From: a virus
Lineage: Duplodnaviria > Caudoviricetes
Direction: 5' to 3' (one strand)
Length of the DNA: 59,921 nt
IMG/VR virus record: IMGVR_UViG_3300037071_000511
Location: 1-59,921 of that record
In this document: positions 2,769 through 57,500 of the stretch, one piece after another
Numbering within the stretch: the first letter of the stretch is position 1
Layout: every line of letters begins with the position of its first letter
The notes under the pieces: model-generated
Database searches by the model: none
What the model was told of the DNA's origin: nothing
What the model saw: the letters and a program-made list of their open reading frames with translations, nothing else
Position numbers and translations under genes: made by a program

Positions 2769-3340
2769 GCGGCAGCATCCTCTTCCTCTTCTTCGTCTTC
2801 CCGCTCTGCGTCGGCCAAGGCCAGCGCTGCCGCCTCGATCTCAGCCGCCCGCGCCTTCTCTGCCTTGGTCAGGGGTTTCTCGATCACGAACACCGACACC
2901 GGGTATTCCGGCACCTTGCGATAGCCGGTGATGTTCGAGTCCTGATCCGTCTCCGCGATGTGCGCCACGGCGTTCTGCAGGGCGTGGTAGTACTTGTAAT
3001 CGACCCAGCACGTCTGAGCCCGGGGGATCAGGATGTGGATGCCGTTGACCGAGCAGAAGACCGGCTCGTTGCCGCCCGGCTTTTCCTGTAGCTCGATGCG
3101 CAACTGGACGCTGCGCTTGGCTTCGAGATGCCGCGCCCGGGGCGGTTCAACGCGCTGGATCGGGGCATCTTCCTTGCCGTCATCGATCTCGACGAAGTCG
3201 GTGGGGAAGCCAGCTTGCGCCAGCTTCGCCTTGATACCGGCTACGCCCAATCGAGGATTGACGTCCAACCCCATGTTGGCGGTGACGTGCTCTGCGAGAG
3301 CCGTAGCGCTCATGAGGTCGATTGGGATTCGTTGTCTCAT
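2765..3340 (-). CDS. Hypothetical morphogenesis protein
   Basis: 191-aa ORF coupled to both neighbours; V-x-VNG motif, acidic tail. Confidence 0.6.
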   Translation of the reverse strand: MRQRIPIDLMSATALAEHVTANMGLDVNPRLGVAGIKAKLAQAGFPTDFVEIDDGKEDAPIQRVEPPRARHLEAKRSVQLRIELQEKPGGNEPVFCSVNGIHILIPRAQTCWVDYKYYHALQNAVAHIAETDQDSNITGYRKVPEYPVSVFVIEKPLTKAEKARAAEIEAAALALADAEREDEEEEEDAAA

Positions 3341-3579
3341 TTCACCGCCTCGACTGTGCCATCTGCCTTGATGGTGACTTCGGTTGGGGGTTCTGGCGGG
3401 GAGCCAGCGGGAGGAGGAACTGGCTCCCCTGTAACCCGCTCCTCCGGTTGTGGAGCCTCTTCAGGAGCAGGGTTTTCTTCGGCGTCGTCGTCGCCGTTTT
3501 CGTCGTCTTCGATTTCCTCGTCGGGCTCGTCAGGATTCTTTTGGGCCTTTTCCTTTTTAGGCGCGGCTTTCTTGGCCAT
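3337..3579 (-). CDS. Small acidic/Pro-rich protein
   Basis: GGAGGA RBS before MAKKAAPKK at 3579. Confidence 0.6.
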   Translation of the reverse strand: MAKKAAPKKEKAQKNPDEPDEEIEDDENGDDDAEENPAPEEAPQPEERVTGEPVPPPAGSPPEPPTEVTIKADGTVEAVK

Positions 3580-3640
3580 GTTAATTTCCTCCGTGGAATT
3601 TGAGGGGAACCGGGCAGGGATGTCCCGCCCGGGTAGTTCG

Positions 3641-4147
3641 TCAGGCCCAAGGCCCAACTACGGACGCGGACGTGGTTGAGGCCAAGAGGCCGTCGACCAG
3701 CCACAGGTTGGTCGCGATGTCGGTGAAGGTGAGCACCGTCCCCTTCTGCCCGCCGGATGCCGCAACCAGCGTGATAAGCGCGTTGGTGCCACCAACCGCG
3801 TGAGACGAACCCGCACCGAATGTGGCCGTCCCGTAGGTCAGCAGGCCCGTCATGAAGTCGGCAGCGGACGCCGTCTTGATGATGCCGTTGCCGCTGGTGA
3901 TCGCCGTCGAGATGACCACCCGGACAACGTTCTGACTGCCGGTAGCTGGCGGCAGGGTGAAGACGAACCCGCCGGTCGGCTTGTTGATCAGGGTAGTGCC
4001 GGTCGTCAGGGTGCCGCTCACCTGTGCGGTGGCGGGACTGCTTATCGGACTCGATCCGCCCTCGCGCAGGTAGCGCTCAAGCGCAGTATCATCGCCCGAA
4101 AAGATCGCCTTCCGCGCGGCAGCGGCTTCTAGTGGAGTGAATGGCAT
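3641..4147 (-). CDS. Virion structural protein (decoration-like)
   Basis: Thr/Gly/Ala-rich, AAGGAG RBS, in the head gene cluster. Confidence 0.55.
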   Translation of the reverse strand: MPFTPLEAAAARKAIFSGDDTALERYLREGGSSPISSPATAQVSGTLTTGTTLINKPTGGFVFTLPPATGSQNVVRVVISTAITSGNGIIKTASAADFMTGLLTYGTATFGAGSSHAVGGTNALITLVAASGGQKGTVLTFTDIATNLWLVDGLLASTTSASVVGPWA

Positions 4148-4158
4148 GTGCGTTCTCC

Positions 4159-4728
4159 TTATGCGTCATCACGGAAAGCGCGCCACCGGAACAGCTTGCC
4201 TGCAGCCGCGAGCGTCGAGCCAACGGTGAAGCCCCTGCTGGTCGCCGCCGTCGTGCCCTCGAAGCGAGAGATGAAGGTGGCACCTGCCGTCACGGCCGTT
4301 GACTGCGTGGTGATCGACACGTTGTGGACGACTGCGGGGGTGATCGTGGCATCGTCAGTGCCAATCGAGCCGGTGGCCGGGTTGGTGATGACGATGTTTT
4401 CCGAGCCGAAGGCGTTGACGAGCGTGCCTTCCACCAACGTGAAGTTTCCGGCCGCCGTGCCTGCGGCATAGGTGCCAGACATAAGCTGCACGGAATCGAT
4501 CGTGGCCGTGGCACCCGTGGTCGCGCCCCGGATGGTGGACCCAGCGACAGGCACCGCCGTGCCGCCAGAGGTGAACGGCACCACCCACGGGATCAGGTAT
4601 GCGATCTGGACGTTGGTGCCGTCTGTTGCGTTGTAGAGTTCGACGGAGTTTGGAATCCAGCCGAGTTCGACGTTGACGGTCGCGCCAGTTCCGGTGAACG
4701 ACCCACTTTTGGAATTGCCCTTCGCCAT
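4159..4728 (-). CDS. Capsid decoration/minor head protein
   Basis: Follows the MCP; GSFTGTG...ELGW-x-P start; AAGGAG RBS. Confidence 0.55.
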   Translation of the reverse strand: MAKGNSKSGSFTGTGATVNVELGWIPNSVELYNATDGTNVQIAYLIPWVVPFTSGGTAVPVAGSTIRGATTGATATIDSVQLMSGTYAAGTAAGNFTLVEGTLVNAFGSENIVITNPATGSIGTDDATITPAVVHNVSITTQSTAVTAGATFISRFEGTTAATSRGFTVGSTLAAAGKLFRWRAFRDDA

Positions 4729-11273: not shown

Positions 11274-14048
11274 TCACGTCCATGCGCTGCCGCTCCAAGT
11301 CTTCGCCGGTTTAGTCACCCATGCGCTGCCGCTCCATACCTTGGTGGGTCGCTGGACCCATGCGCTGCCGTCCCACACGCCTACCGTGCCTGCTGCTGCC
11401 ACCACCCCAGTATCCACCGTGACCGTGCCAACGGTAGATGTGGCCAGATTGGTGGCGGCGTTGACGTTGGCCTTGCCGACAACCGACCCGTTGCCGATCG
11501 AGGTCGTGGCCAGATTGGTGGCGGCGTTGACGTTGGCCTTGCCGACGATCGTCGGCGTGCTCGTCGCCATCGTCGCCAGATTGGTGGTCGCCGAAACGTT
11601 GGCCTTGCCGACAACCGTCTCGTCGCCGCCGGTAATGGTGGCAAGGTTGGTGGTGGCCGAGACTACGGCTTTGCCGACAACCGTCTCATCGCCAATCGAG
11701 GTGGACAACAGGTTGGTGGCAGCGTCGACAACCGCCTTGCCGACAACCGTTTCGTCGCCCACCGAGACGGTGAGGAGATTGGTGGTGGCGTTGGCCGTGG
11801 CGTTGACCGCACCCGTCGTCGGAGCCGCCGACTTATAGGGATGGCCTGATGGCAGTGCGGTGACGTGGGTGGTGACGCCGAGAATCCCGTCCCACTTCCA
11901 CGCGAGATAGCCCGAAACCTTGTCTTGGATGTCCTGCGACATGCCCGCCGTCATGAAGACGAACTCGCGAGCCGTGCCGAAGCCTTGGCCGCCCGCCGTT
12001 CCGTAGTTCATCAGGGCAGGATTGGCGTCGGGAGTGAAGGTTTCCCCTACTTCGTCAAGGGGAGCATTCCCATCCCGGCCGATCTTGATGCCCGTAGCAT
12101 TGGGGCCTGAGAAGTAAATCTGACCATCAGCAGACGGCCACGTCAGCGTGCCAGCCTGAAAGAATCCACCACCGCCACTGTAGGTGCCTAGATTGTTGGT
12201 GCCAGTTTCGAGCAGAACGTGGTGATAGCTGCCAGCCTGATTGGCGAGGAGGGTGCGATAGCTGCCAGCGGCGTTGGGCTTGCCTGCAAATGCCAAGTCG
12301 AAATACGCAGACGGGAGCGTTGGCATTTGGATGTATAGGTTACTGCCACTCGTCGCATTGGCGATGTAAACGCCATCGGAATTGACCGACAATGTGGTGG
12401 TGCCTGCTGGCGTCCCGTGCCGGGCGTTGCCGCTCTTGTCACGCCACTGGGTGAGGAACCCTCCCGACTGGGAAATCGTGGAAGCGTCCGCGAAATCGTA
12501 CCAGACAATGAGATCGCTTCCGATATCAGCCGGTGTCCACAGCGCACCGCCGCCCGTGGTGACCGTCTCATTGCCGAGAGAGAGGGTCAGCAGGTTGGTT
12601 AGCGCATTGACATTGGCCTTGCCGACAACGGTTGTGCCGGTGCCGACTGTCGTGGTCAGTAGATTGGTGGTGGCGTTGACCGTGACGTTGACGCCACCGG
12701 TCGTGACGGTGACAGTGCCAACCGCAGTCGTGGCCAGATTGGTCGTGGCGTTGACGGTAACGCCGCCACTGGCACTCTCGCCCATCCACGACTTGAAGCC
12801 GGATGGAACGGTCTGTGTGAAATTAGCTAGTCTGGTGCGGACGGTGGCAGCGACACCACTCGTCAGAGCCGATATAAAAACCAGATGATAAACGCCATCA
12901 ACTAACGATGATGTGTCTAATCCTCCTGTGTCTGTTGCCGGATCAGCAGTTCCACTGTTATTCCAGAGGCCATTGTTCTTACGGAACCAGATCAGGTCCG
13001 CCCCAGCATTCCATGCCATGCAGGCAATGTCTGCTGTTGCAAAAGTCCCTAACGCTGCGAGTGAAGTCCCACCCTTAAGCGTAACAGCCCCGTTACCTGC
13101 CGCAGTAAATACGTCCGTAGTCGTGGTAACAGAAGAGCTAGCAAGTGATATTCCCCACTTATTCCCGGTATTATGTACGGTGTTCACAAATTCGGCGTAG
13201 TATTTACCCGCTGCGGGTGATGTGCGCCCCTGTGTAGTTCGTATCCCACCAGACGACGACGATGTGCTGGTTGCTCTCGTATCGCTGACGGATACTGTGA
13301 TATTGGATGACTTGTCACCTGCACTCCATGCATCGGTGGTAAGTAATACATCCCTGAACCCGCCAAGGTTCACGCCCTGAGCGGAAGAGATTGAGGCTGT
13401 CGTGCTGATGGTGCCGGTCGCACCCGCAGTTGTCTTAACTGCATCAAAGATGGCGAGCGAGGTCTGTGCGCCATTCAGCGTGAGGCTATCGGCCCGCTCT
13501 ATCCACGTTGTCGTAGAGGGCGCTGTCGTAGTGTCAGTTGCGCCGCTGGCAGTCGAAGGAGCATTGGCAGATTTGAATGCAGAGAAGGTTGATTCTTGCC
13601 CTCCACATGCCATCCCAACCAGCAAATCATCGTTACTTAATGTCGTACCGCCAGTCATGGTGACTGCGGTGATGGCAGGCCCCGTAGTCGTCCAATTGAG
13701 AAGATAACCGAACAGAGTGTTCGTACCGCGATAAGCAACAATTCGTCCCAGAGCGACACTGATGCCAGCCGGATGTGTAAAGGTCAGGGCAGGAGCCGAT
13801 GACCCACGAACGATAAAGGCCATACAGCTAGAAGGAGCGCCGCTGTTCGACGTTAGGGTGTTGCCGCTGTTCTGGTTAGCAATTTGCGTCCAACCGCTAG
13901 GCAGCGTTATTGCGGTACCCGAGCTAGTCCGCGATGAAATGCACGCGACCAGCAGATCGCCAGCCGCGACACCAGCCGGTTCCGTCAGCGTATGGGTGGT
14001 GGTCGCAGTCTCAACGACTGATGAGACGCCGACGAATGACCATGCCAT
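11274..14048 (-). CDS. Large fibre/adhesin-like protein with SPRY-like and LamG-like domains and 22-aa repeats
   Basis: W...DKSSNIT..GKYYAEF (SPRY-like); WTPA.I...WYD.AD.STI...W.DKSGN (LamG-like); LPSGHPYK; VVGKANVNAATNL repeats. Confidence 0.7.
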   Translation of the reverse strand: MAWSFVGVSSVVETATTTHTLTEPAGVAAGDLLVACISSRTSSGTAITLPSGWTQIANQNSGNTLTSNSGAPSSCMAFIVRGSSAPALTFTHPAGISVALGRIVAYRGTNTLFGYLLNWTTTGPAITAVTMTGGTTLSNDDLLVGMACGGQESTFSAFKSANAPSTASGATDTTTAPSTTTWIERADSLTLNGAQTSLAIFDAVKTTAGATGTISTTASISSAQGVNLGGFRDVLLTTDAWSAGDKSSNITVSVSDTRATSTSSSSGGIRTTQGRTSPAAGKYYAEFVNTVHNTGNKWGISLASSSVTTTTDVFTAAGNGAVTLKGGTSLAALGTFATADIACMAWNAGADLIWFRKNNGLWNNSGTADPATDTGGLDTSSLVDGVYHLVFISALTSGVAATVRTRLANFTQTVPSGFKSWMGESASGGVTVNATTNLATTAVGTVTVTTGGVNVTVNATTNLLTTTVGTGTTVVGKANVNALTNLLTLSLGNETVTTGGGALWTPADIGSDLIVWYDFADASTISQSGGFLTQWRDKSGNARHGTPAGTTTLSVNSDGVYIANATSGSNLYIQMPTLPSAYFDLAFAGKPNAAGSYRTLLANQAGSYHHVLLETGTNNLGTYSGGGGFFQAGTLTWPSADGQIYFSGPNATGIKIGRDGNAPLDEVGETFTPDANPALMNYGTAGGQGFGTAREFVFMTAGMSQDIQDKVSGYLAWKWDGILGVTTHVTALPSGHPYKSAAPTTGAVNATANATTNLLTVSVGDETVVGKAVVDAATNLLSTSIGDETVVGKAVVSATTNLATITGGDETVVGKANVSATTNLATMATSTPTIVGKANVNAATNLATTSIGNGSVVGKANVNAATNLATSTVGTVTVDTGVVAAAGTVGVWDGSAWVQRPTKVWSGSAWVTKPAKTWSGSAWT

Positions 14049-14056
14049 CGGTCACC

Positions 14057-16555
14057 TCACGTCGTGTCGATCCAGATATCGCCCACTGAGGGAGAGGATG
14101 GCTCAGTCGATGAGACGGTGATCGTCGGCACCGGTTCCCAAACGGTGTTCCTGCGCGCGTAGAACACGTCGTCATCCGGTGCTTCGGCTATGCCACGAAA
14201 CTCAATGACGACGGCGGAACCATAAGCAGTGAGTGGGGCCAGACCTGTCGATACGGGACTGATAGCCCAGTCGTCATACGTGCCGTGATTGGTATGGTTC
14301 GACTCGATGTCGAGCATGTACCATTTCGACAGATCGTCAGTGTTGCGAATGACAATCCGCGAACCCTTTTTTAGGCTCGCCCGCGTGTAGTATCTGACGG
14401 TGGTGCCATTCTTGTCCTTGTGATGGATGAACATCGTGGTGGCGCTGCCGATGCTGGCGTCATCGAACGTGATCTCGCCATCGACTGTCGGTGCAGCGCC
14501 GCTGTCATTGTAGGTGAAATCGGTCGGCATTCCGCCGCCGCCGACTACCTGCCACGACCCGTCACCGAGACGCCCATAAGCCTCACCATCATCAGGGGGC
14601 AGACCGAATGTCGGCCAGACGGCTGGTGCTCCGTACTCGATTATAGGCGAGATGAGTGGCACTCCGCTGTCTGCCATGACGGTCAGCGGACACTCATCTT
14701 CCACCGTTCCCGAATATCCCTCGGACGTTTCTATTATTGATCCAGATGGGTTGGTCGTCGGGATCGCTAGGCCAAGTACGTTGTCAGAATCCTCGATCCA
14801 TATGGAAACGATCCACACCATATATTGACCGTAGGCAACCATATTCGTGCCAGGAAAGTACGCTTCGAACCAACCAGTACCATTTACTGAATAATCGATC
14901 TGATCAATGATGATGGCTGGGGTGGTCTTGTTGAAGAGATATATCTTTGCGTTACCGTCCGGTGTTCCGTTCGACTGGATGTAGAACCGTGCGCCGACGA
15001 TCTTACACACATCGCCGTAGTAAACGCTCTGCGCATACATCGTGGCGGGACTGCCGCTGTCAGTAGCCGATTCCTCAAGGTATTCAGTCGTGAGAACGCT
15101 GTATGGCTTGGGGCCGTAGAGTATCTGGTTGGCGGTATCGACGTAATAATCGCCCATCTGACCAGTGCCCGAGTCAGGGGGGTATTCACCATTCAAGATC
15201 GCCGGAACCTTATCCCAAGACTCATTTCTTCGGGAATATAAATACTCATCGTTTGGCGCTTCCTCGACGCCTGCTACACCAGTCCCTATCTCTGTCCAAC
15301 CGCTGTACTGCCGTCCGTAGATCAGACCATCTTGTGGCGCATCAGGCAGACCACCAAGAGCATTGATTTGTACAAGCACAGGTTCCGCGATCAGGTTGTC
15401 ACCACCCATTGCATAGTACTCAATGGACCAACTGCCGTATGTGGTGTGACTTGTCATGTCACTGGTGAGTAGGAACGAGAACCATCTATGAGGTGTGTCT
15501 TTGTTCTGGACAAACACCTGCCGACCAGTACGCAATGACGCTGACAACACTCTCCAGATGTCGTTCCCAGTGACATCGGTGAAATGGATCATGATCTCAG
15601 TGGCAAGTTCCTGATTGATGCCCACCTCATTGAGTGTGACTTCTCCTGCTGATGGCTCAGCACCACTGTCTACAAATGTGTAATTCGAGTGTGCGGTTGT
15701 GACTTCCCATCCCGCATCTCTGCGGATGTATGCAAACCCATCACTTGGTGCATCACTGACACCACCAGTCGGTAGCGTCTGCCACGTCTTGTCACCACGC
15801 CAGTACTGCGATGTCGTGCCGGGAGAGACAAAATCCTCCTTGCCCTCCGTCGAACTCTCAACAAACGCAACCGTGGCGATGTCATGTGCCGTGCCGGGCC
15901 ATGTCGGTGTCGGTGCCTGCGGAGAGCCGGTGAACGACGGCGAATCGAGCGGTGCGTATGTCGTCTCGATCGTGTCGATCTGCGACTGCAGGAACGTGTC
16001 CGTGCCCTGCAGCGCAACGATGTTCGTGGTGTGCGTCCCGGTTGTGGAGGTCAGCAGAGCGAGATCGGTCGTCAGGTTGACAATTGTGGACTGGCCCTGC
16101 GTGCCCGTATGGGCGGCGCGATTGAGATAGTAGCTGCCTGTCTGTGCATCCAGCAGATCGGCGTCGAGGTTGCTGCCCGCACCATCGACAGTCAACAATT
16201 TCGTCAGTATCTGCGCGGCCGTGTCAGACCCGCCGAACGGGCCATAGTCCACGCCGTTTACGTGGCCGTAGAAGCCATCGGTCTTCGCCCAGATGTCGCC
16301 GTCGTTGGGGGAGGTCGGCTTTGCACCGGGCGGAACGTTGAGCCCGGCAACGCCCGTGGTCGAGGCCGTCGTGACCAGCTTGCCCACCACCGTCGTCGGC
16401 TTGTTGAGGGTGAGCGTGGTCGAGGTGTCGGCGAACGCCGTCTTCAAGGCGGTCTTGACCGTGCGGATATGGTCGTCGCCCTCGCTGCGAGGATCAGTGC
16501 CGGTCGGCCATGCCTCGTTCAGCCCTGAAATCAGGGAGGTGGATTCCAGACCCAT
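14057..16555 (-). CDS. Tail fibre-like protein with multiple foldon-like motifs
   Basis: N-terminal EGDDHIR..K, VDGAGSNLDADLLD, APLDSPSFTG.P.APT and five AP.DG..Y.R...W motifs. Confidence 0.75.
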   Translation of the reverse strand: MGLESTSLISGLNEAWPTGTDPRSEGDDHIRTVKTALKTAFADTSTTLTLNKPTTVVGKLVTTASTTGVAGLNVPPGAKPTSPNDGDIWAKTDGFYGHVNGVDYGPFGGSDTAAQILTKLLTVDGAGSNLDADLLDAQTGSYYLNRAAHTGTQGQSTIVNLTTDLALLTSTTGTHTTNIVALQGTDTFLQSQIDTIETTYAPLDSPSFTGSPQAPTPTWPGTAHDIATVAFVESSTEGKEDFVSPGTTSQYWRGDKTWQTLPTGGVSDAPSDGFAYIRRDAGWEVTTAHSNYTFVDSGAEPSAGEVTLNEVGINQELATEIMIHFTDVTGNDIWRVLSASLRTGRQVFVQNKDTPHRWFSFLLTSDMTSHTTYGSWSIEYYAMGGDNLIAEPVLVQINALGGLPDAPQDGLIYGRQYSGWTEIGTGVAGVEEAPNDEYLYSRRNESWDKVPAILNGEYPPDSGTGQMGDYYVDTANQILYGPKPYSVLTTEYLEESATDSGSPATMYAQSVYYGDVCKIVGARFYIQSNGTPDGNAKIYLFNKTTPAIIIDQIDYSVNGTGWFEAYFPGTNMVAYGQYMVWIVSIWIEDSDNVLGLAIPTTNPSGSIIETSEGYSGTVEDECPLTVMADSGVPLISPIIEYGAPAVWPTFGLPPDDGEAYGRLGDGSWQVVGGGGMPTDFTYNDSGAAPTVDGEITFDDASIGSATTMFIHHKDKNGTTVRYYTRASLKKGSRIVIRNTDDLSKWYMLDIESNHTNHGTYDDWAISPVSTGLAPLTAYGSAVVIEFRGIAEAPDDDVFYARRNTVWEPVPTITVSSTEPSSPSVGDIWIDTT

Positions 16556-47395: not shown

Positions 47396-47884
47396 TCAGG
47401 GCGATCCTTCCAGCGGATAGTGCCAGATCAATGGCTCGTCTGTTCCCGGGAAGGTGGGCGATTTCGAATCAGGCCTCCGCATGTGATCCACGATCAGTTG
47501 CAATGTTGCGCAATACGATTCGAGCTTTGCTTCGTCAGGCCGGTCTTCGAGGATGACGCCCACCGTGTACCTGTCAGACCCTTGGTAGGCGAACCCGGTC
47601 GAGACGCTGAAGATGTCGCCGCCGCCGCGCTGGCTGGCGATGCGCAGGACGCAGGGCATTTTGTCCGACGTGTATTCCTCGTAGCGCGAGAGGAATTTAT
47701 TCAGCATCGACACATCGTTCATCGCCCGCCAGAACACGTATGAGGGAATTGCGATCGCGACGAGCAAGGCGATCGTCAAGACCTGTGACAGGGTGAGCGA
47801 TTGGACGATCTTCACCAGTTCGCCAACCAGACCGATACGCCCCCCCAACGCAGGCGGCGGTGCCGGTGGCGGCTGCTCAGTCAT
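47396..47884 (-). CDS. Single-TM membrane protein in lysis cassette (i-spanin/holin-like candidate)
   Basis: N-terminal TM segment; overlaps the endolysin end. Confidence 0.55.
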   Translation of the reverse strand: MTEQPPPAPPPALGGRIGLVGELVKIVQSLTLSQVLTIALLVAIAIPSYVFWRAMNDVSMLNKFLSRYEEYTSDKMPCVLRIASQRGGGDIFSVSTGFAYQGSDRYTVGVILEDRPDEAKLESYCATLQLIVDHMRRPDSKSPTFPGTDEPLIWHYPLEGSP

Positions 47885-48548
47885 CCCGCTCGACCTTGAC
47901 CTCGACTGGCGTGCCGTCTGGCACCGTGACTGTCACCCGGTAGACGATCTCCATCAGACCCGCGGCCACTTCCGAGATCATCAGAGCTTCGAGGAACTTG
48001 TCGTGATACCCGGCGACCCTCGCGCCGTTGGTCTTGACGTCGTTGTTGATGATGATGCGCGCCCCGGTCGGATCGTTCTTGGTCGCCGAGAAGAAGTCAT
48101 CGAGCGCCTTGCCAGTGAACCAGCCGCCTTCCATCCCGTGGTACATCACGTTGGCAGATATGGTTGGATCGAGCGCCCGATCAGGGTGCCACTCCAAGTC
48201 ATCCGTACCGCCAGTCAGATCCAATTCTCTAGTAGCGTTTCTGTAGTTCTCGCGCCACGTAAGTTGAACGTCGCCCCTTCCATAATATGCGTGCCCCGTT
48301 TCTTTATCAACAGCCCCGTATTTCTTGCCTTTACCTTTGCCATACTCTTCGATCGGCCACATAGTCTTTGCCGTTTCATGGTAACTCGTTGCAAAGGGGT
48401 AGGCGAGGTGGCGTAAGTCTGAGGATAGCGTGCTCGCTTCATAGGCCGCTAGCTTGAAGTTCATTCCGTCTACCTGTTGCTGAGACATCCCCTTCGGAAA
48501 GAGGCTGGCGCGAATCGAATTGAAGAATTTGGTCCGGTCGAATTTCAT
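47877..48548 (-). CDS. Endolysin, GH19 chitinase-like lysozyme
   Basis: LAY..AT..HET..M.PI.E.G, YYGRG.VQLTW..NY, G.FTG..L and AR.IIN. Confidence 0.85.
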   Translation of the reverse strand: MKFDRTKFFNSIRASLFPKGMSQQQVDGMNFKLAAYEASTLSSDLRHLAYPFATSYHETAKTMWPIEEYGKGKGKKYGAVDKETGHAYYGRGDVQLTWRENYRNATRELDLTGGTDDLEWHPDRALDPTISANVMYHGMEGGWFTGKALDDFFSATKNDPTGARIIINNDVKTNGARVAGYHDKFLEALMISEVAAGLMEIVYRVTVTVPDGTPVEVKVERDD

Positions 48549-51500: not shown

Positions 51501-54500
51501 GTCGTCAGCGCCAGCGGCACGTTGTGCTTGGTGGCAAGCTCCTTCAGGTACTCCATGCCCTGCGTGCCCATGCCGGATTTCTGCGGATAGGCCGACAGCC
51601 ACTTCACGTACAGGGCGTCACCGTAGTTCTCCAACTGCATCATGATGGCCGCGGTCTGCTCTTTGTTGGCAAACCCGATCTCGGCATTGTTCAGCGGATT
51701 GGGGAACAGGGTGGCGAAGGCCTCGTTGAGCGCGGCATCGATGCGCGTCTTCACCGCCGCCTTCTCACCGCCGCCGAGATTGAGCGGCTTCGAGAACAGC
51801 GCCAGTTGATTCTTCTCGTCGCCGAACAGCGGCAGTTCGCCGACATCCTTCTGGCCCACGGTCGGCCGCATTGGCGCTTCCGCCCGGCGCTGCGCCAGCG
51901 TTTTCTCGCTGACCTTCTCGGCCCCCGGAATGACCAACTGTTCCGCCGGGCCATCGAACAGGTCGACTATCTCGGTCGGGACCGGCGGCGCTGGCTGCGC
52001 TGCCCGCTTCTCCTCCATATACAGATGGGTCGCGAGGCTCGATGCGTGATTGTACTGGGTCAGCGGATAGGCACTGCGCATCAGTTCGCCAGTGCGGCGA
52101 TCGCGGACGATGTACTGGTTCTTGCCGATCGGGCCATATTCAAAATCCCCAGCGCGCCCCTTCTGCACGAACCCCTCGGGCGCTGGCTTGGAGAACTTCG
52201 CGCCTTCGGTCACCAGCTTGCCGGTAGCATCTACGAACACCTGATTCTCTGGCCTGTTGATCAGGATGAACTCGCCTTCGCCGCCGCGATCGGTGACCGC
52301 CAGAATGTGCTCGCTGTCGAGCGGCACCTCGGCGCTGAGAATCTGGAACTCCTGCTGCACGCCTTCCTTGTGCGCTGGCTGGTGGCCCTGCGAGGCGTAG
52401 TCGTAGCTCACGCTCCACGACAGGATGGTCCGCTTGCTGCCCTGTGCGACCTGTCTCTGCTTGCGGTAGAGCTTGACGGTCGGCCCGTAATTGTCCCGCA
52501 GGATTTCCAAAATGGGTTCGACATCCGCCCTGATCTTGTCCAGCAATGCCGGGTCATCGCCTCGCGCCGCCCTTTCAAGCTGGCCCTGCCCCTGTCGAAC
52601 GGCGAGGCTCATGGCCCCCGTTCCAACCCGCTCTCCCCGCGGCGTCCATTGCGTGTACTCGACTATCGCCTCCTGCACGGCGGTGTTGAGTTTTTGGTCG
52701 GCCCGATCCAGCTTTTCCTTGACGTTGCGCGGGAAGTTTTCGCGTTTCGGCTCGACCTTGCTGAACCACGGCTGGCCCTCCATCCACGCAGGTTCACTAG
52801 GCGAGGCTTGCCCGGGCGATGTCACCTCGATGCCAGCGCCCACCTGCGTGCGACCGCCGATCTTGCCGCTCTGCACCTGCCGGAACACGTCCTCGGCCGT
52901 GCGAATGTCGTGACCTGTCAGCGCCTGATACAGCGCCTTCAGGAAGGTTTTGAATTTCTTGAAGGTGCGGCTGATCATGCCGTCCATGCGAGCGCCGTTC
53001 AGCCACTCGACATAGGCGTGCGTGATGCCCTCCTCGACCCACTGCGCCTGCGGATACTGCCGCTTGATCTCGTCGGTGATCCATTCCTTCCGCGACTTGC
53101 GCCGCAGGATCGCCTTCTCGCTGTCGGTCGCGGCGAGTTCCATAATGGCGTGCATCACCTCATGGTGCAGCGCGTCTTCCGGGCTAGCGACCGGCTTCGA
53201 TCCGATCTGCAACGCGACATTGATTGCGTCGTGGAGATAGACGCCGTTGACGTTGAACTCGTCTTCGCCCTGAGTGACGAGAACTTCCTCCCAGACACTC
53301 AGGTCGACGCCCTTCAGGCCATAGCCGTCGAGGATTTTGCGGAAGCTCTTGAGGAACCCTGCCGCCTTGGCGACGAACGCTGGCGTGGTGGTGTAGGTGA
53401 TGTTTTCGGCGGGAGTAACGACAGTTTCCTGCCGCCCGGCCGGTGGCAGCAGGAGGCTTGGCGCTGCCCGTGCAATGGCTACTTCTTGCTGCCGAGCCGC
53501 CCTGCCTGCGCCGGGCCGTATTTTTTCTGGACGTTGGCCACGGCCTCTTCGCTCAACATGTCTCCCCGCTCCAATTTTTCCTCCGGCGACAAACCGGGCT
53601 CCGAGAGCCAAGAGCGGTGCTTTTCCCGTAGCCTCTGAGACTCTTGCGTTAAGATGGTCGTCCGATCTGATTTTGACATAGCTGGCGAATTTACCTTTCG
53701 ATTTCGCGTAGTCGAAAATATACGGCGGGGCCGCCACCACCTTCATGAAAAAGTCCGGGTTGATCAGCCGTCCCTTTTCTACGAATCTCTTCCACATACG
53801 GCGCGCGGCCGTGTCCTGCGTGACATCCAGCAAGGCGAGATGGACGGTATAGCCGTTCTTCTCCAGCATGCCGCGCCACCACTCGATGCTGCCGTGCTGG
53901 TCGCCCACCGTGGGGATGATGAGATTGGCACCCTCGCTGACAAGCTGGTCAGTGACCATATCGCCTAGCTGTTTGCTTTCGTTATGAACTGCGTTCGCGC
54001 CCATGCCGGGCGTCATCTTCCCATTGGCGTCCGGGGCGGTGTATCCGGGGATGACCTTCTTGGCCTCATCGACATCGGTGATTGCCGCCTTGAACTCATA
54101 GGCAAGTGCATTGGCGATAGTCGATTTGCCTGCCGCAGGTGGGCCCTGAACGATGATCGCGAGGCGCTTGTTCTCGACAGTGTACGGCTTGACGTGGTCG
54201 AGCCGCACCCCCACCCCCGTCTCTCTCACCTTTGCGTTGTGGTAGTCGATGCCTTCATTGATCTCCTTGGTCGCCAGCCCGTGGGCAACGTCGTACAGAT
54301 AATCGAGCGCTTCCTGCAGCTTGACCTTTGCGCCTTTGACATTCCACCGCCGGGCCGCCAACCACTCGGGCGTCCAGTATCCTTCCTCATCAGACGTGAT
54401 GGGGACGTCGTTCATTGCCTTCACGGCGGCAAGGGCTTCAGGCGTCTTCAGCTTCTTGAGCGCCCGTTTCCTGAGTAGCTTCTCAACCAGACCCAGCCTG

Positions 54501-57500
54501 CGCGGCGGCGGCTCATCGGTTGTCGGCATCTGCCGTGAGAACTTCGCGCCTTCCTTGGCCTTCGCCTCTGCCTCTTGCCTCTCTGCCAGCGCCTGCGCTT
54601 TGGCCGCAGCCGCACGCTTTTCACCATCCGCCTTGATCTGGGCGGCCATCGCCTCTTTAGCTGTCAGTTCCTCTTTGGCAGGTGCTTTTGGCGCAGGACT
54701 TGGGCGTCCTTCAGCTTTCGGTCGCGGTTTAGTTTCGACGGCTCGCCCTTGGCTTGGTGCTCCAGCGTTCTTGCCAGTAGCTCGATCGCCACCGGGGAGC
54801 TTTTCTTGGACTGCTGTTTCGCCATATTGCCGTGCCTTTGCCGTTGCGAGAATCGCTGTTGCCGGGGGTGCCGTCTCGCCAAGCAGATCGACCCCGGAGG
54901 TCGTCTTGCGAGCTTCCGTCGCATAGAAGCGCAACGCATCGGCCAGCTTCTCACGCCCAGCGGGCATCGTCCAGCTTGCCGTATTACGAAACATCAGCCG
55001 CAATATGGCCTCGGCCGCGGGCGAGATCGTTGACCCGGAGAAGATATCCTTCTGCGCGACGAACTCGGCGAGTGGCCGCCCTTCGCTGCGCGCACGCTGC
55101 ACCAGCCGCACCGCTTCGAGCACGGCCGCGGTGACGTCCACGTCGGGATCGATCGCGTCACTCTTGGCCTCGTCGCGCATCTGCGCCCACACGCCAGCCA
55201 CGTCCATCAGCGCGCCGCCGATCGCCTTGATGTTGGTGTCGGTGGATTCGACCAGAGCGCCGACGAGATCGGCATCGCCATAGGCCCGGGCAAGCAGCGC
55301 ACTCTGTATGCGCCGGATCGCCTCCTGCGACAGGCCGCCTTCCGGCGTGACCATCGCCGCCTGTTCGTTGGGATTGACCACCTGCTGCATGAAGGAGCGG
55401 ACGAAATCGCGGTTGCCAGCGTCGGCGATATCACCGCCCCGATAGAGTTCGACCGTCTCTGGCTTCATCGCCGCCGCGTCAGCCAGCGCCCGCTCTGTCG
55501 CCGACATCGCCAGCGTGGTCCGTTCGTTGGCTTCCCGGGTGAAGGCCTGCCGCTGGTCCGTTGCCAGTTGCCCCTTCCTGACACGCACAAGCACGGGACG
55601 GCGCATCCCCTGCACCGGGTAGCCCTTGGATGCCAGATAGTCGACGTAGGCCTTGGCCGTGGCCAAGCCTTGGGTGAAGGCGCGACGGATCGCCAGCACG
55701 CGGCCGTTGCCGCTCTCGACAACACCGTCTTCCGAAATAATCGGAGCACCGTCGCTGGCGTTTGGATTCTGGTCGAGCAGCGCCGGGTTGAGGTTCTGGG
55801 CGATCTTGTTGATTTGCTGATCCGACGTGCCGCGGCTGCGGTCGCGCGGCTGCAGTTCACCCGGATAGGCCGGGTTGACCCCGCCCTCGTCGCGCTGCGA
55901 GGCGATCAGGTCGTCGGCCTCGATCACGGCGTAGGTGACAGGCACGTCGCGGCCTGACGCAGTGATGGCGACATCGTCCTTGATCGGGCGCGTCTCTGGC
56001 CTCGCCTGTACTTCCGGCGCGGCGGCTCCGCGATTGGCTTCGAGCTTCGCCTTCAGTTCCGATTGCTTGGGTGGTTCCGCCGCGGTCGGCTGCTCGACCG
56101 GGACATAGCCGTCGCGCAAGGCCTCGTTGGCCGCCTCCTTCAGCGTGTTGAACGTGGTGTGGCCGAACGGCCCTGCCTTGTCGAAACGGGTGATTCGGAA
56201 TTTCCCGGGCTCTGCCATGTCGGGCCCGATCAGCGCCCGGTGTCCGTCCCGGGACTGATGCTCCATCCGGGTCGATCCGCCCTTCTCCGCGATCGCCTCG
56301 GCCTTGGCCTCGCGCTCTGCCAGATGGGCCTTGGACTTGGCGACGAACTCCTCGAACGACTGCGTGTCTTCGGATCGCGGGTGCGCGTCGTCGCTGACAT
56401 CCTCGATCGGTGGCGCTGGCGTCGGTGCCGTTGCCCGTTCGAGCGCCGTGTCCACAGGAGGCGCTACAGCGGCGGGAGCAGCGGCGGGTGCCGCAGTACC
56501 GCCCACCTCGGCCGCGCTCGCTGGCGGGGCCGCCTGCTGCCCGGGCGTGGCAATTGGAGAGGGAGCAACCCCTCCCGTAATCTGGGCGATAAGCGCCGCT
56601 GTGTTGGCCCGCAGTTCCGCCGTCAGATCGGCCACCGGGGTCTGCACCACCTGTCGCTTGCCGTTGACCAATTCGGTGTGGGTGACGGTCGATGGCTGGC
56701 CGGTCGCCACCTCGACCAGTGCCTTGCCGTCATCGATGACGTCGTTGGGGATAGGCGACGAGCGATCCGTCTCGGTCAGCCGCGGACTGGCAACGCGCTC
56801 ATCTTCCGGCGGCTGCAGCGCTTCTTTGACCGCGCCCTCGGCCACCTCGACTGTCGGCTTGAGCAGGGCGTTGCCGATCATCGTGATGCTGCCGTCTGCA
56901 AGACGGACTTGAGTCATGTTGTCGCCGCGCTTGATCACGTCCACGGTCATGCCGTGCAGCGGGCCTGCCGGTTGCTCGACGCCAGACTCGTCAGTGAACG
57001 CCGGATCATTGACGACCATCGTCGGGGATGGCTCGACGGCGAGCGCCTCCTCCGCTGGGATTATGTCCTCGGCCGGTTGCGCCCCGGCTGGCGGTTCATA
57101 GCGCGCCCGGGGCTGTCCCTCTGGCGCGGGTGCCTCGCGCTCACCACCCAGCGTGAACGGCAGCGCCGCCGCTGTGACCGTGGTGCCGACAGCGCCACCG
57201 ACAGCAACGCTCTGCGCGACGTTCTCGTAGGGGTCTTGGTCGGGGTTGTAGGTGAACTGGGCAATCTTGTTCTGCATGAATTGCTGCAGACCCTCTTGCC
57301 CACCTTCAACGACAAAGCCCTTGCCCAGCTTGACCAGCGCGTCAGCGAACTTGCCCCACTTGCCGACAGGCACCTTGCTGAAGAAAGCCTCCAGCGGGGC
57401 GTACTCCGTCGCGCCCGGGAAGAATGAAAGATTGGCCGCCTGCAGGACGTCTTCCTTGGAAGCCCCTTGCTTCAGCGCCATGTCGACCTGTTCGCCGACT

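Follow-up and report, generated by a model that had tools for sequence, protein, structure and literature searches.

The stretch of DNA considered here, referred to below as the window, is the 59,921-nucleotide (nt) IMG/VR virus record IMGVR_UViG_3300037071_000511 (positions 1 to 59,921). Matches to portal/adaptor, tail-fibre, Bet/RecT and endolysin-type proteins identify it as a phage record, and the genome lookup also returned a virus. Its minus strand carries a giant open reading frame (ORF) for a multi-domain protein of 3178 amino acid residues (aa), in which Pfam recognises a ddrB-ParB domain (residues 709–836, E = 1.7e-35) and a Zeta_toxin domain (residues 1297–1465, E = 3.3e-15). Because these two domains occur in one ORF and the copy of the gene in a relative (locus L022) contains LPD5, a ‘large polyvalent protein-associated domain’, the giant gene is attributed to the polyvalent proteins (Iyer, Burroughs, Anantharaman and Aravind 2017, PMC5512222). 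As a member of this family, the giant protein would be expected to be carried in the virion and to enter the host along with the DNA. Two small ORFs, designated altA and altB, are nested in the giant gene on the same strand, in its +1 frame; altA lies directly behind the ddrB-ParB module and altB at the end of the zeta-type kinase (Table 1). Judged by their sequences, altA and altB behave as conserved overlapping genes rather than chance ORFs.

Both domains belong to modules that are wider than their Pfam matches. The tblastn similarity to DdrB of phage P1 and its relatives spans residues 7–337 or more of the query, and in a three-relative alignment of the ddrB-ParB module (A1) conservation reaches the terminal QYG. 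The conserved module of the zeta-type kinase extends from about 54445 to 53627.

Table 1. The giant gene, its two effector modules and the nested ORFs, with their positions in the window.
Feature	Position	Strand	Basis
altA, +1-frame gene, 53 aa and TGA stop; ATG formed from host TAT-GGC (Tyr1086-Gly1087)	54664..54825	-	ORF and conservation
Shine–Dalgarno-like AAAGG, 9 nt 5′ of the altA ATG	54835..54839	-	Motif inspection
Host linker A, residues ~1089–1140, G/R/P/A/E-rich low-complexity reading of altA DNA	54662..54817	-	Translation, composition
altB, +1-frame gene, 66 aa and TAG stop	53479..53679	-	ORF and conservation
Shine–Dalgarno-like GAAAGG, 14 nt 5′ of the altB ATG (long spacing)	53694..53699	-	Motif inspection
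Host linker B, residues ~1490–1535, G/R/A-rich reading of altB DNA	53477..53614	-	Translation, composition
Giant host ORF, 3178 aa, polyvalent multi-domain phage protein	48545..58081	-	ORF list and Pfam
ddrB-ParB module, host frame, residues ~706–1088, ends ...AKARQYG	54818..55966	-	Pfam, tblastn, alignment
Zeta_toxin-type P-loop kinase domain, host frame, Pfam residues 1297–1465	53687..54193	-	Pfam

The two ORFs stand out by their composition. Over the whole giant gene, the GC content of the three codon positions is 0.65/0.46/0.785. In a sliding scan of the whole gene, the value for third positions (GC3) in the host frame falls to 0.38–0.48 only at gene offsets 3150–3540 and 4380–4680, which are the altA and altB sites, and at both dips the normal coding pattern is found in the +1 frame. 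An earlier note on this DNA, made from the letters alone, had proposed such a scan, and these sites are the sole two strong dips. The coordinates and translations that it gave for both ORFs were confirmed, and its counts of G or C at third positions are exact (altA, 41/53 against 19/53 in the host frame; altB, 48/66 against 30/66). As it had also stated, the host frame turns rich in Gly, Arg and Pro there; the fraction of Gly, Arg, Pro, Ala and Glu is 0.62 at altA and 0.57 at altB, compared with 0.41 in the whole protein. The position of altA right after ddrB-ParB is correct when the module is taken to its conserved end (residue 1087), the Pfam match ending at residue 836. The ‘AAGG-type’ ribosome-binding sites (RBS) of that note hold for altA, where the motif is well spaced, and only in part for altB, where the spacing is long.

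The mere existence of an ORF is unremarkable in this gene, which contains 12 +1-frame ATG ORFs of at least 50 aa; composition and conservation, not presence, distinguish altA and altB from the others. This number is the starting point of a sceptical explanation, in which both would be chance ORFs and their composition an artefact of low-complexity linker sequence within GC-rich DNA. A host GC3 of 0.38–0.48 in a genome with a GC3 of 0.785 is, however, unlike a Gly/Ala/Arg/Pro linker.

Relatives of altA were sought with the host ParB module as the query and not with the small ORF, so as to avoid circularity; the search gave 16 viral loci and three loci from metagenome-assembled genomes. A +1-frame ATG ORF of 47–77 aa with its own stop lies at the ...AK.RQYG end of the module in 15 of the 19 testable sources (the window and 18 contigs), down to about 45% host identity; L023 is cut short, and L016, L017, L018 and L021 were not counted. 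The peptide motif LLA[KR]T.E.QA..EP..L.R...L..A..LR can be recognised down to about 57% host identity. The start is formed from host NAT+GNN in 15/15 cases, the host residues varying (Tyr, Asp, Asn or His, then Gly, Ala, Asp or Glu), and NAT makes up 12–54% of the NAY codons in these host genes. A purine-rich Shine–Dalgarno-like (SD-like) motif (AAGG, GAGG or GGAG) is located about 7–14 nt 5′ of the ATG in the 15 loci.

The Nei–Gojobori ratio of nonsynonymous to synonymous substitution rates (dN/dS) at altA is 0.21–0.62 in the alternative frame and 1.05–2.4 in the host frame, in 15/15 pairs (six relatives). The altA frame is under purifying selection, and the host frame there looks unconstrained. 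Control ORFs, namely chance +1 ORFs over conserved host domains, show the opposite, with a host ratio of 0.12–0.6 and an alternative ratio of 0.9–4; three control rows (orf_56400/L006, orf_49770/L009 and orf_48969/L007), probably non-collinear low-complexity matches, were given no weight. Peptides of chance +1 ORFs of the giant gene also match relatives by tblastn, which accords with the sceptical explanation; because the DNA itself is conserved, such similarity of off-frame peptides proves little. The reversal of the dN/dS contrast relative to chance ORFs speaks against that explanation.

The DNA on the 3′ side of altA differs between loci. It encodes the zeta module (the window and L020), an in-frame cassette of 270 nt followed by zeta (L001/L009), a ParB-like domain (L005/L007), LPD5 (L022) or domains without a Pfam match, and in G164 the gene ends there. 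altA is tied to the ddrB-ParB module in front of it and is independent of the downstream content. The cassette junction is located at window positions 54655–54677 (altA stop, 54664–54666); the insert of L001/L009 at this place looks, by eye, like a small domain similar to a segment found further along the window protein (GRAGDFEYGP...RDRRTGE). A soil-metagenome contig (run X7) has 217 different letters between 54660 and 54677; contigs from runs X4 and X6 depart from the window at 54675 and share an identical 30-letter continuation. Directly behind altA, a further +1 ATG ORF of 59 aa (54448–54627, minus strand) covers an Ala/Glu/Lys-rich host stretch; its comparison with L009 is ambiguous (alternative frame 0.62, host frame 0.80), and it is unconserved past this closest relative. 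In ddrB of phage P1 (L002, NC_005856), the homologous place has no +1 ORF; iddB, annotated there at 3459–3857, runs antisense within ddrB and is unrelated to the +1 ORFs.

altA also occurs as a protein family. A profile built from 13 embedded copies matched 39 representative clusters at E ≤ 1e-3, three of them at E ≤ 1e-10, among 1.84 billion proteins; the clusters are mostly 45–76 aa in length and align end to end. One member, WP_156776957.1, is a 57-aa NCBI hypothetical protein encoded on a 3.6-Mb contig. A match of the profile in L031 (E 3.4e-4) overlies a ribosomal-protein-like gene and was rejected as a false positive. A hidden Markov model (HMM) made from 26 database altA proteins alone and run against six frames finds one place per source, always the altA site, in 14/22 sources; among the 20 sources of the host-module search, the number is 12.

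Several longer proteins contain altA. In P0034/P0043 it is joined in one frame to altC, a third embedded family described below; in L026 this is a free-standing gene, stop codons interrupting the remaining frames. altA forms the N-terminus of P0017/P0044 (212 aa, five near-identical members); in G164 the gene for this protein starts at the QYG/ATG site of the ParB gene, which in its own frame reaches a stop about 130 codons further on. In P0019 (274 aa), altA is fused in frame to a domain that is found as a host-frame domain in L010.

The AlphaFold model of altA, based on 38 rows, is a confident helical hairpin (predicted local distance difference test, pLDDT, 83.6); Foldseek searches of the PDB with it gave no informative neighbours, with a best E of 3.1. 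Matches of the altA and altB peptides to Pfam, NCBIfam and PHROG were absent or far below the cut-offs, and Pfam was likewise empty for the longer fusion proteins. When altA, altB and a single zeta-end ORF of low GC content were compared with 50,697 phage records by tblastn, no match was found, nor did a viral scan with P0044 as the query give one.

altB is kept in the +1 frame on all three other contigs that have its zeta module, with peptide identities of 83, 52 and 36%; the kinase domain in these lineages is 82, 41 and 43% identical. Its start, stop and site are conserved in 4/4 lineages with the zeta module, and in L020 as well. The ATG is retained in each case, although in the window lineage it lies two codons later and the SD spacing becomes 14 nt; in L006, L007 and L020 it begins 6 nt earlier, with a spacing of about 7 nt. 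Since some 20 codons at the start of altB are shared with the final conserved strand of the kinase domain (...GY..V.S.....RV.EA), the 5′ part of the gene is truly dual-coding. In dN/dS comparisons, the alternative frame is below the host frame in 5/6 pairs. The altB model (four-row alignment) is a two-helix hairpin with helices at residues 3–25 and 32–59 and a pLDDT of 71.5; co-folding of the kinase module (A6) with altB (A4), run without controls, gave scores of 0.23, 0.68 and 0.00. altB is the weaker case of the two.

The position of altB recurs behind other phage zeta-type kinases. A viral scan with a five-row kinase alignment gave 80 loci, four of them contigs already known, and 77 of the 80 reach far enough; a metagenome scan with the zeta alignment A2 gave no match. 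In 65/77 viral loci, a +1 ATG ORF of at least 45 aa starts no more than 60 nt from the projected end of the kinase domain, and these ORFs encode 55 distinct peptides. The controls gave 24/308 for windows inside the domain and 0/77 for the +2 frame. Of the loci with a GC content below 0.50, 32/41 have such an ORF, and the pattern is also present in phages of 33–45% GC, including low-GC phages whose kinase gene is free-standing. The start is mostly located at a GAT-GG (Asp-Gly) codon pair. In five kinase genes that stand alone (about 400–470 aa), the last 95 nt are shared with the small ORF, which then extends 29 codons beyond the gene; pN/pS in these non-overlapping codons is 0.32–0.83 in 10/10 pairs. 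In other zeta loci, the host frame continues past the small ORF. Pfam Zeta_toxin was found in 7/7 host ORFs checked, one of which (L065) also has Phage_Mu_F. One large group of the zeta-end ORFs has an acidic [FY][DN][YW][DES]..E motif followed by a helix.

This wide pattern consists of a shared position, frame and size rather than demonstrated homology, and it is stronger evidence for altB than the selection signal is. The recurrence of the arrangement at such low GC content, together with the database clusters and free-standing relatives of altA, counts further against chance ORFs and a composition artefact, an explanation that is now scarcely credible.

Further embedded ORFs were observed in other loci. 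The altC family (motif LIDPP....W..FL..L..LP) occupies the +1 frame at L011:6018-6233, L012:5988-6227 and L019:6012-6194, on the plus strand of these loci, in each case with an AGGAGG-like SD motif 6–8 nt upstream, and has four small database relatives. In L012, it lies behind a sequence that by eye resembles a JAB/RadC-type peptidase motif (HNHPSSSAPSWGD). Two more +1 ATG ORFs with an SD-like motif and no family match, L021:7833-8030 (66 aa) and L010:6234-6596 (121 aa), lie in linkers of low host GC3.

The openness of the host frame was assessed by holding the alternative peptide fixed and redrawing its synonymous codons from the usage of the host gene. The redrawn host frame is open in 0–46% of draws, mostly 10–20% (altA, 0.00–0.40; altB, 0.04–0.46); the actual host frame is open in 20/20 loci (15 altA and five altB). 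Since the host frame is open beyond chance and the alternative frame is constrained, the dual coding appears to be genuine. altA is very probably a functional protein-coding gene, and altB is probably one too. Position 1 of the host codon is position 3 of the alternative codon, which is rich in G and C, so that G or C is the first letter of most host codons; these consequently specify Gly, Ala, Arg, Pro, Glu and Asp, and T-initial stop codons are less frequent. The composition of the linkers would thus follow from the genetic code, and the observed composition agrees with this.

Conservation and co-occurrence, both predicted in the earlier note, are borne out: start, stop, frame and peptide are kept, and altA accompanies ddrB-ParB and altB the zeta-type kinase regardless of the next domain. 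Its picture of an inhibitor overprinted in the linker, by contrast, has to be inverted. Typical codon usage in the alternative frame, the free-standing relatives, the 5′-overlapping forms seen in stand-alone kinase genes and the exchange of cassettes at the altA stop suggest that the small genes are older and that the large ORF was later extended through them in a nearly stop-free −1 frame.

An alternative frame with ancestral-looking codon usage under a derived host frame would also be expected of fossils, that is, of former small genes or C-terminal tails that were swallowed in a gene fusion and are no longer translated; the existence of stand-alone arrangements and the weak selection on altB in the closest pair are compatible with this. 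The ATG, SD-like motif, stop and peptide are nevertheless kept across lineages with 45–70% identity of the host module, where decay would be expected and alternative-frame dN/dS is 0.21–0.62, and the ATG is retained through changes of host residues; loss of translation is improbable. Programmed frameshifting, for its part, could produce truncated host proteins with a helical tail (+1 shift from the host frame) or N-terminally short polyproteins (−1 shift from altA or altB), and it would suit both the change of frame exactly at the domain end and the in-frame fusion of altA in P0019. An X XXY YYZ heptamer is present in 1/20 alternative ORFs and is unconserved, no search for a +1 shift motif having been made. 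Moreover, the start ATG and SD-like motif are conserved, the altB ATG moves by two codons yet stays an ATG, and the free-standing small family members begin at the same Met. Frameshifting is very improbable.

The arrangement is best explained as follows. Each small gene would be initiated separately, from an RBS and an ATG embedded in the conserved 3′ end of the preceding module (ddrB-ParB for altA, the zeta-type kinase for altB), and would encode a predicted two-helix protein of about 55–65 aa. The giant ORF traverses each small gene in its −1 frame, which yields a flexible linker rich in Gly, Arg, Pro, Ala and Glu, and selection maintains both readings. Each small protein may act as the dedicated partner of the module that precedes it, an immunity-like inhibitor being the most likely form; such an inhibitor would quiet the enzyme in the cell that makes the phage and would be left behind when the polyprotein is packed into the virion. 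An array of the type ‘effector, partner, effector, partner’ would then have been fused into one ORF. Taken together, this explanation has about an even chance of being correct. Inhibition of the adjacent domain by the small proteins, proposed by analogy with MuF and CDI toxins, which have small immunity genes behind them, is plausible, though its probability is put somewhat below even.

A module-specific inhibitor is ranked first because the layout is that of immunity genes behind polymorphic toxins; a docking or leader function, which the N-terminal altA fusions support, comes second. A short ORF lies directly 3′ of the domain and co-varies with it in three combinations: ParB and altA, zeta and its +1 ORF, and the JAB-like domain and altC. 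The peptides at zeta ends also diverge fast, the 55 distinct sequences forming groups that could not be linked. If the small proteins were real but not inhibitors, they might be docking, leader or chaperone pieces that bind the module in front; they could tether the next protein for co-packaging in split arrangements, or aid the folding, assembly or unfolding for ejection of the polyprotein. The fusion of altC and altA agrees with such a role, and the altA stop is the exact point at which entire cassettes differ between variants, which suggests that the next unit begins with altA. In 15 lineages, on the other hand, altA ends after 47–77 codons with its own stop, unjoined, and a giant gene that is already fused would have no need of a tether, yet altA is under purifying selection. 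A docking or leader role is rated slightly less probable than inhibition.

A number of points weigh against the preferred explanation and the evidence behind it. The altA-like domains at the N-terminus of longer proteins (P0017, 212 aa, with P0044 and the QYG/ATG site of G164; P0019, 274 aa) suit a docking or leader role no less than an inhibitor. The alternative peptides guided the codon alignments from which dN/dS was calculated, which is a bias toward the alternative frame, and the loci are related by descent, so the counts are not independent events. Recognisable altA is absent from the distant ParB relatives L016/L017, L018 and L021 and from ddrB of phage P1. The selection signal of altB is marginal (alternative frame 0.58–0.74, host frame 0.75–1.04) and is reversed in the closest pair, the window and L009 (0.88 and 0.55); its SD spacing in the window is 14 nt, and a profile search of a library of 5.8 billion predicted proteins found no altB-like protein of near or longer length. 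Among the 80 zeta loci, the altB HMM matches just three, all from contigs already known, and 0/77 further loci; the hhalign probability for altB against 24 other zeta-end ORFs is 4%.

To these points the comparison with known zeta antitoxins has to be added. In the epsilon/zeta and PezA/PezT systems, a small antitoxin gene is located in front of the zeta gene, and the three-helix bundle that it encodes blocks the nucleotide site of zeta. The likeness lies in the pairing of a zeta-type P-loop kinase with an adjacent gene for a small helical protein. altB and its relatives, however, have no similarity to epsilon or PezA (0 Pfam and 0 NCBIfam families at E up to 1–10). altB lies behind the kinase and overlaps its end, whereas the epsilon gene lies in front, and the models of altA and altB (the latter with the four-row pLDDT given above) are two-helix hairpins, in contrast to the three-helix bundle of epsilon. 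Membership of altB in the epsilon antitoxin family was therefore rejected; it fails on sequence, on gene order and probably on fold.

A same-strand gene wholly embedded in the +1 frame of another phage gene, with both products made, is known from Rz/Rz1 of phage lambda. Rz and Rz1 are two lysis proteins that act together; altA and altB occupy linkers within an effector polyprotein, recur from one module to the next and apparently predate the frame covering them.

Phage MuF polymorphic toxin genes are directly followed by very short ORFs without known domains (Jamet et al. 2017, PMC5576092). In both cases a protein that is, or here would be, delivered in the virion has a toxin-type domain followed by a tiny ORF, and L065 of the present set is itself a MuF and Zeta protein with such an ORF. 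The arrangement described here differs in that the start of the small gene falls within the final codons of the domain (with the 95-nt overlap of stand-alone genes) and, in polyvalent proteins, lies wholly inside the larger ORF, with several units in a row. Zeta domains and embedded ORFs are not mentioned in the available part of the MuF paper.

The account of polyvalent proteins (PMC5512222) covers the class to which the giant gene belongs, with its ddrB-ParB domain, zeta-like kinase and, in a relative, LPD; nested genes at module borders are not described there, and the words ‘overlapping’, ‘frameshift’ and ‘linker’ are absent from its text. The contact-dependent inhibition (CDI) toxin ToxB, which has a ParB-CTPase fold, is neutralised by a small downstream immunity protein, iToxB (bioRxiv 10.64898/2026.05.05.722872). 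As far as the available part of that preprint goes, the resemblance is that a small gene comes directly after an effector domain with a ParB fold, neutralisation being a feature of iToxB; the ParB clade is another one (‘ddrB’ is absent from the text), delivery is by CDI and not by phage, and the immunity gene is separate rather than nested.

Nested +1 phage genes and small immunity ORFs behind delivered toxins are thus already known. In a full-text literature search, which left most subscription journals outside its coverage, neither the nesting of conserved genes within polyvalent-protein linkers nor an ORF that begins within the end of a phage zeta-type kinase domain was found to have been described.

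Two further features of the window were noted. An endolysin-type ORF at 47877–48548 (minus strand; phrog_181, 7e-23) begins where the giant gene stops, the two having an ATGA in common (48545–48548). The GC content is 0.545–0.563 at positions 12001–16000, a region of ORFs of 924 aa and 832 aa (tail-fibre-like), compared with about 0.62 elsewhere.

A more general building rule may be considered, although it is doubtful at present. Every effector module (ddrB-ParB, zeta-type kinase, JAB-like peptidase and others) would have its own immunity microgene, with an RBS and ATG in the last conserved codons of the module, and when modules are strung together, the −1 readings of the microgenes would become the linkers. 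If this rule were true, one stretch of DNA would encode an array of weapons, the linkers between them and all the safety catches; cassettes would be swappable at the microgene stop; and free-standing or fused copies in bacteria (altC with altA, L026) would be ready protection against incoming effectors.

Gene callers disallow nesting on the same strand, and small phage protein families tied to injected effector domains are consequently absent from annotation. If the small proteins are module-specific inhibitors, they would offer a direct handle on the poorly understood roles of ddrB-ParB and phage zeta-type kinases, would explain how phages can safely produce such enzymes and would supply natural inhibitor–enzyme pairs for study. 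These loci are also an unusually clean case of overlapping genes, as the covering frame appears to be the newcomer and selection can be measured on both frames. A GC3-rich gene offers a stop-poor −1 frame, which may be recruited as a linker that fuses neighbouring genes.

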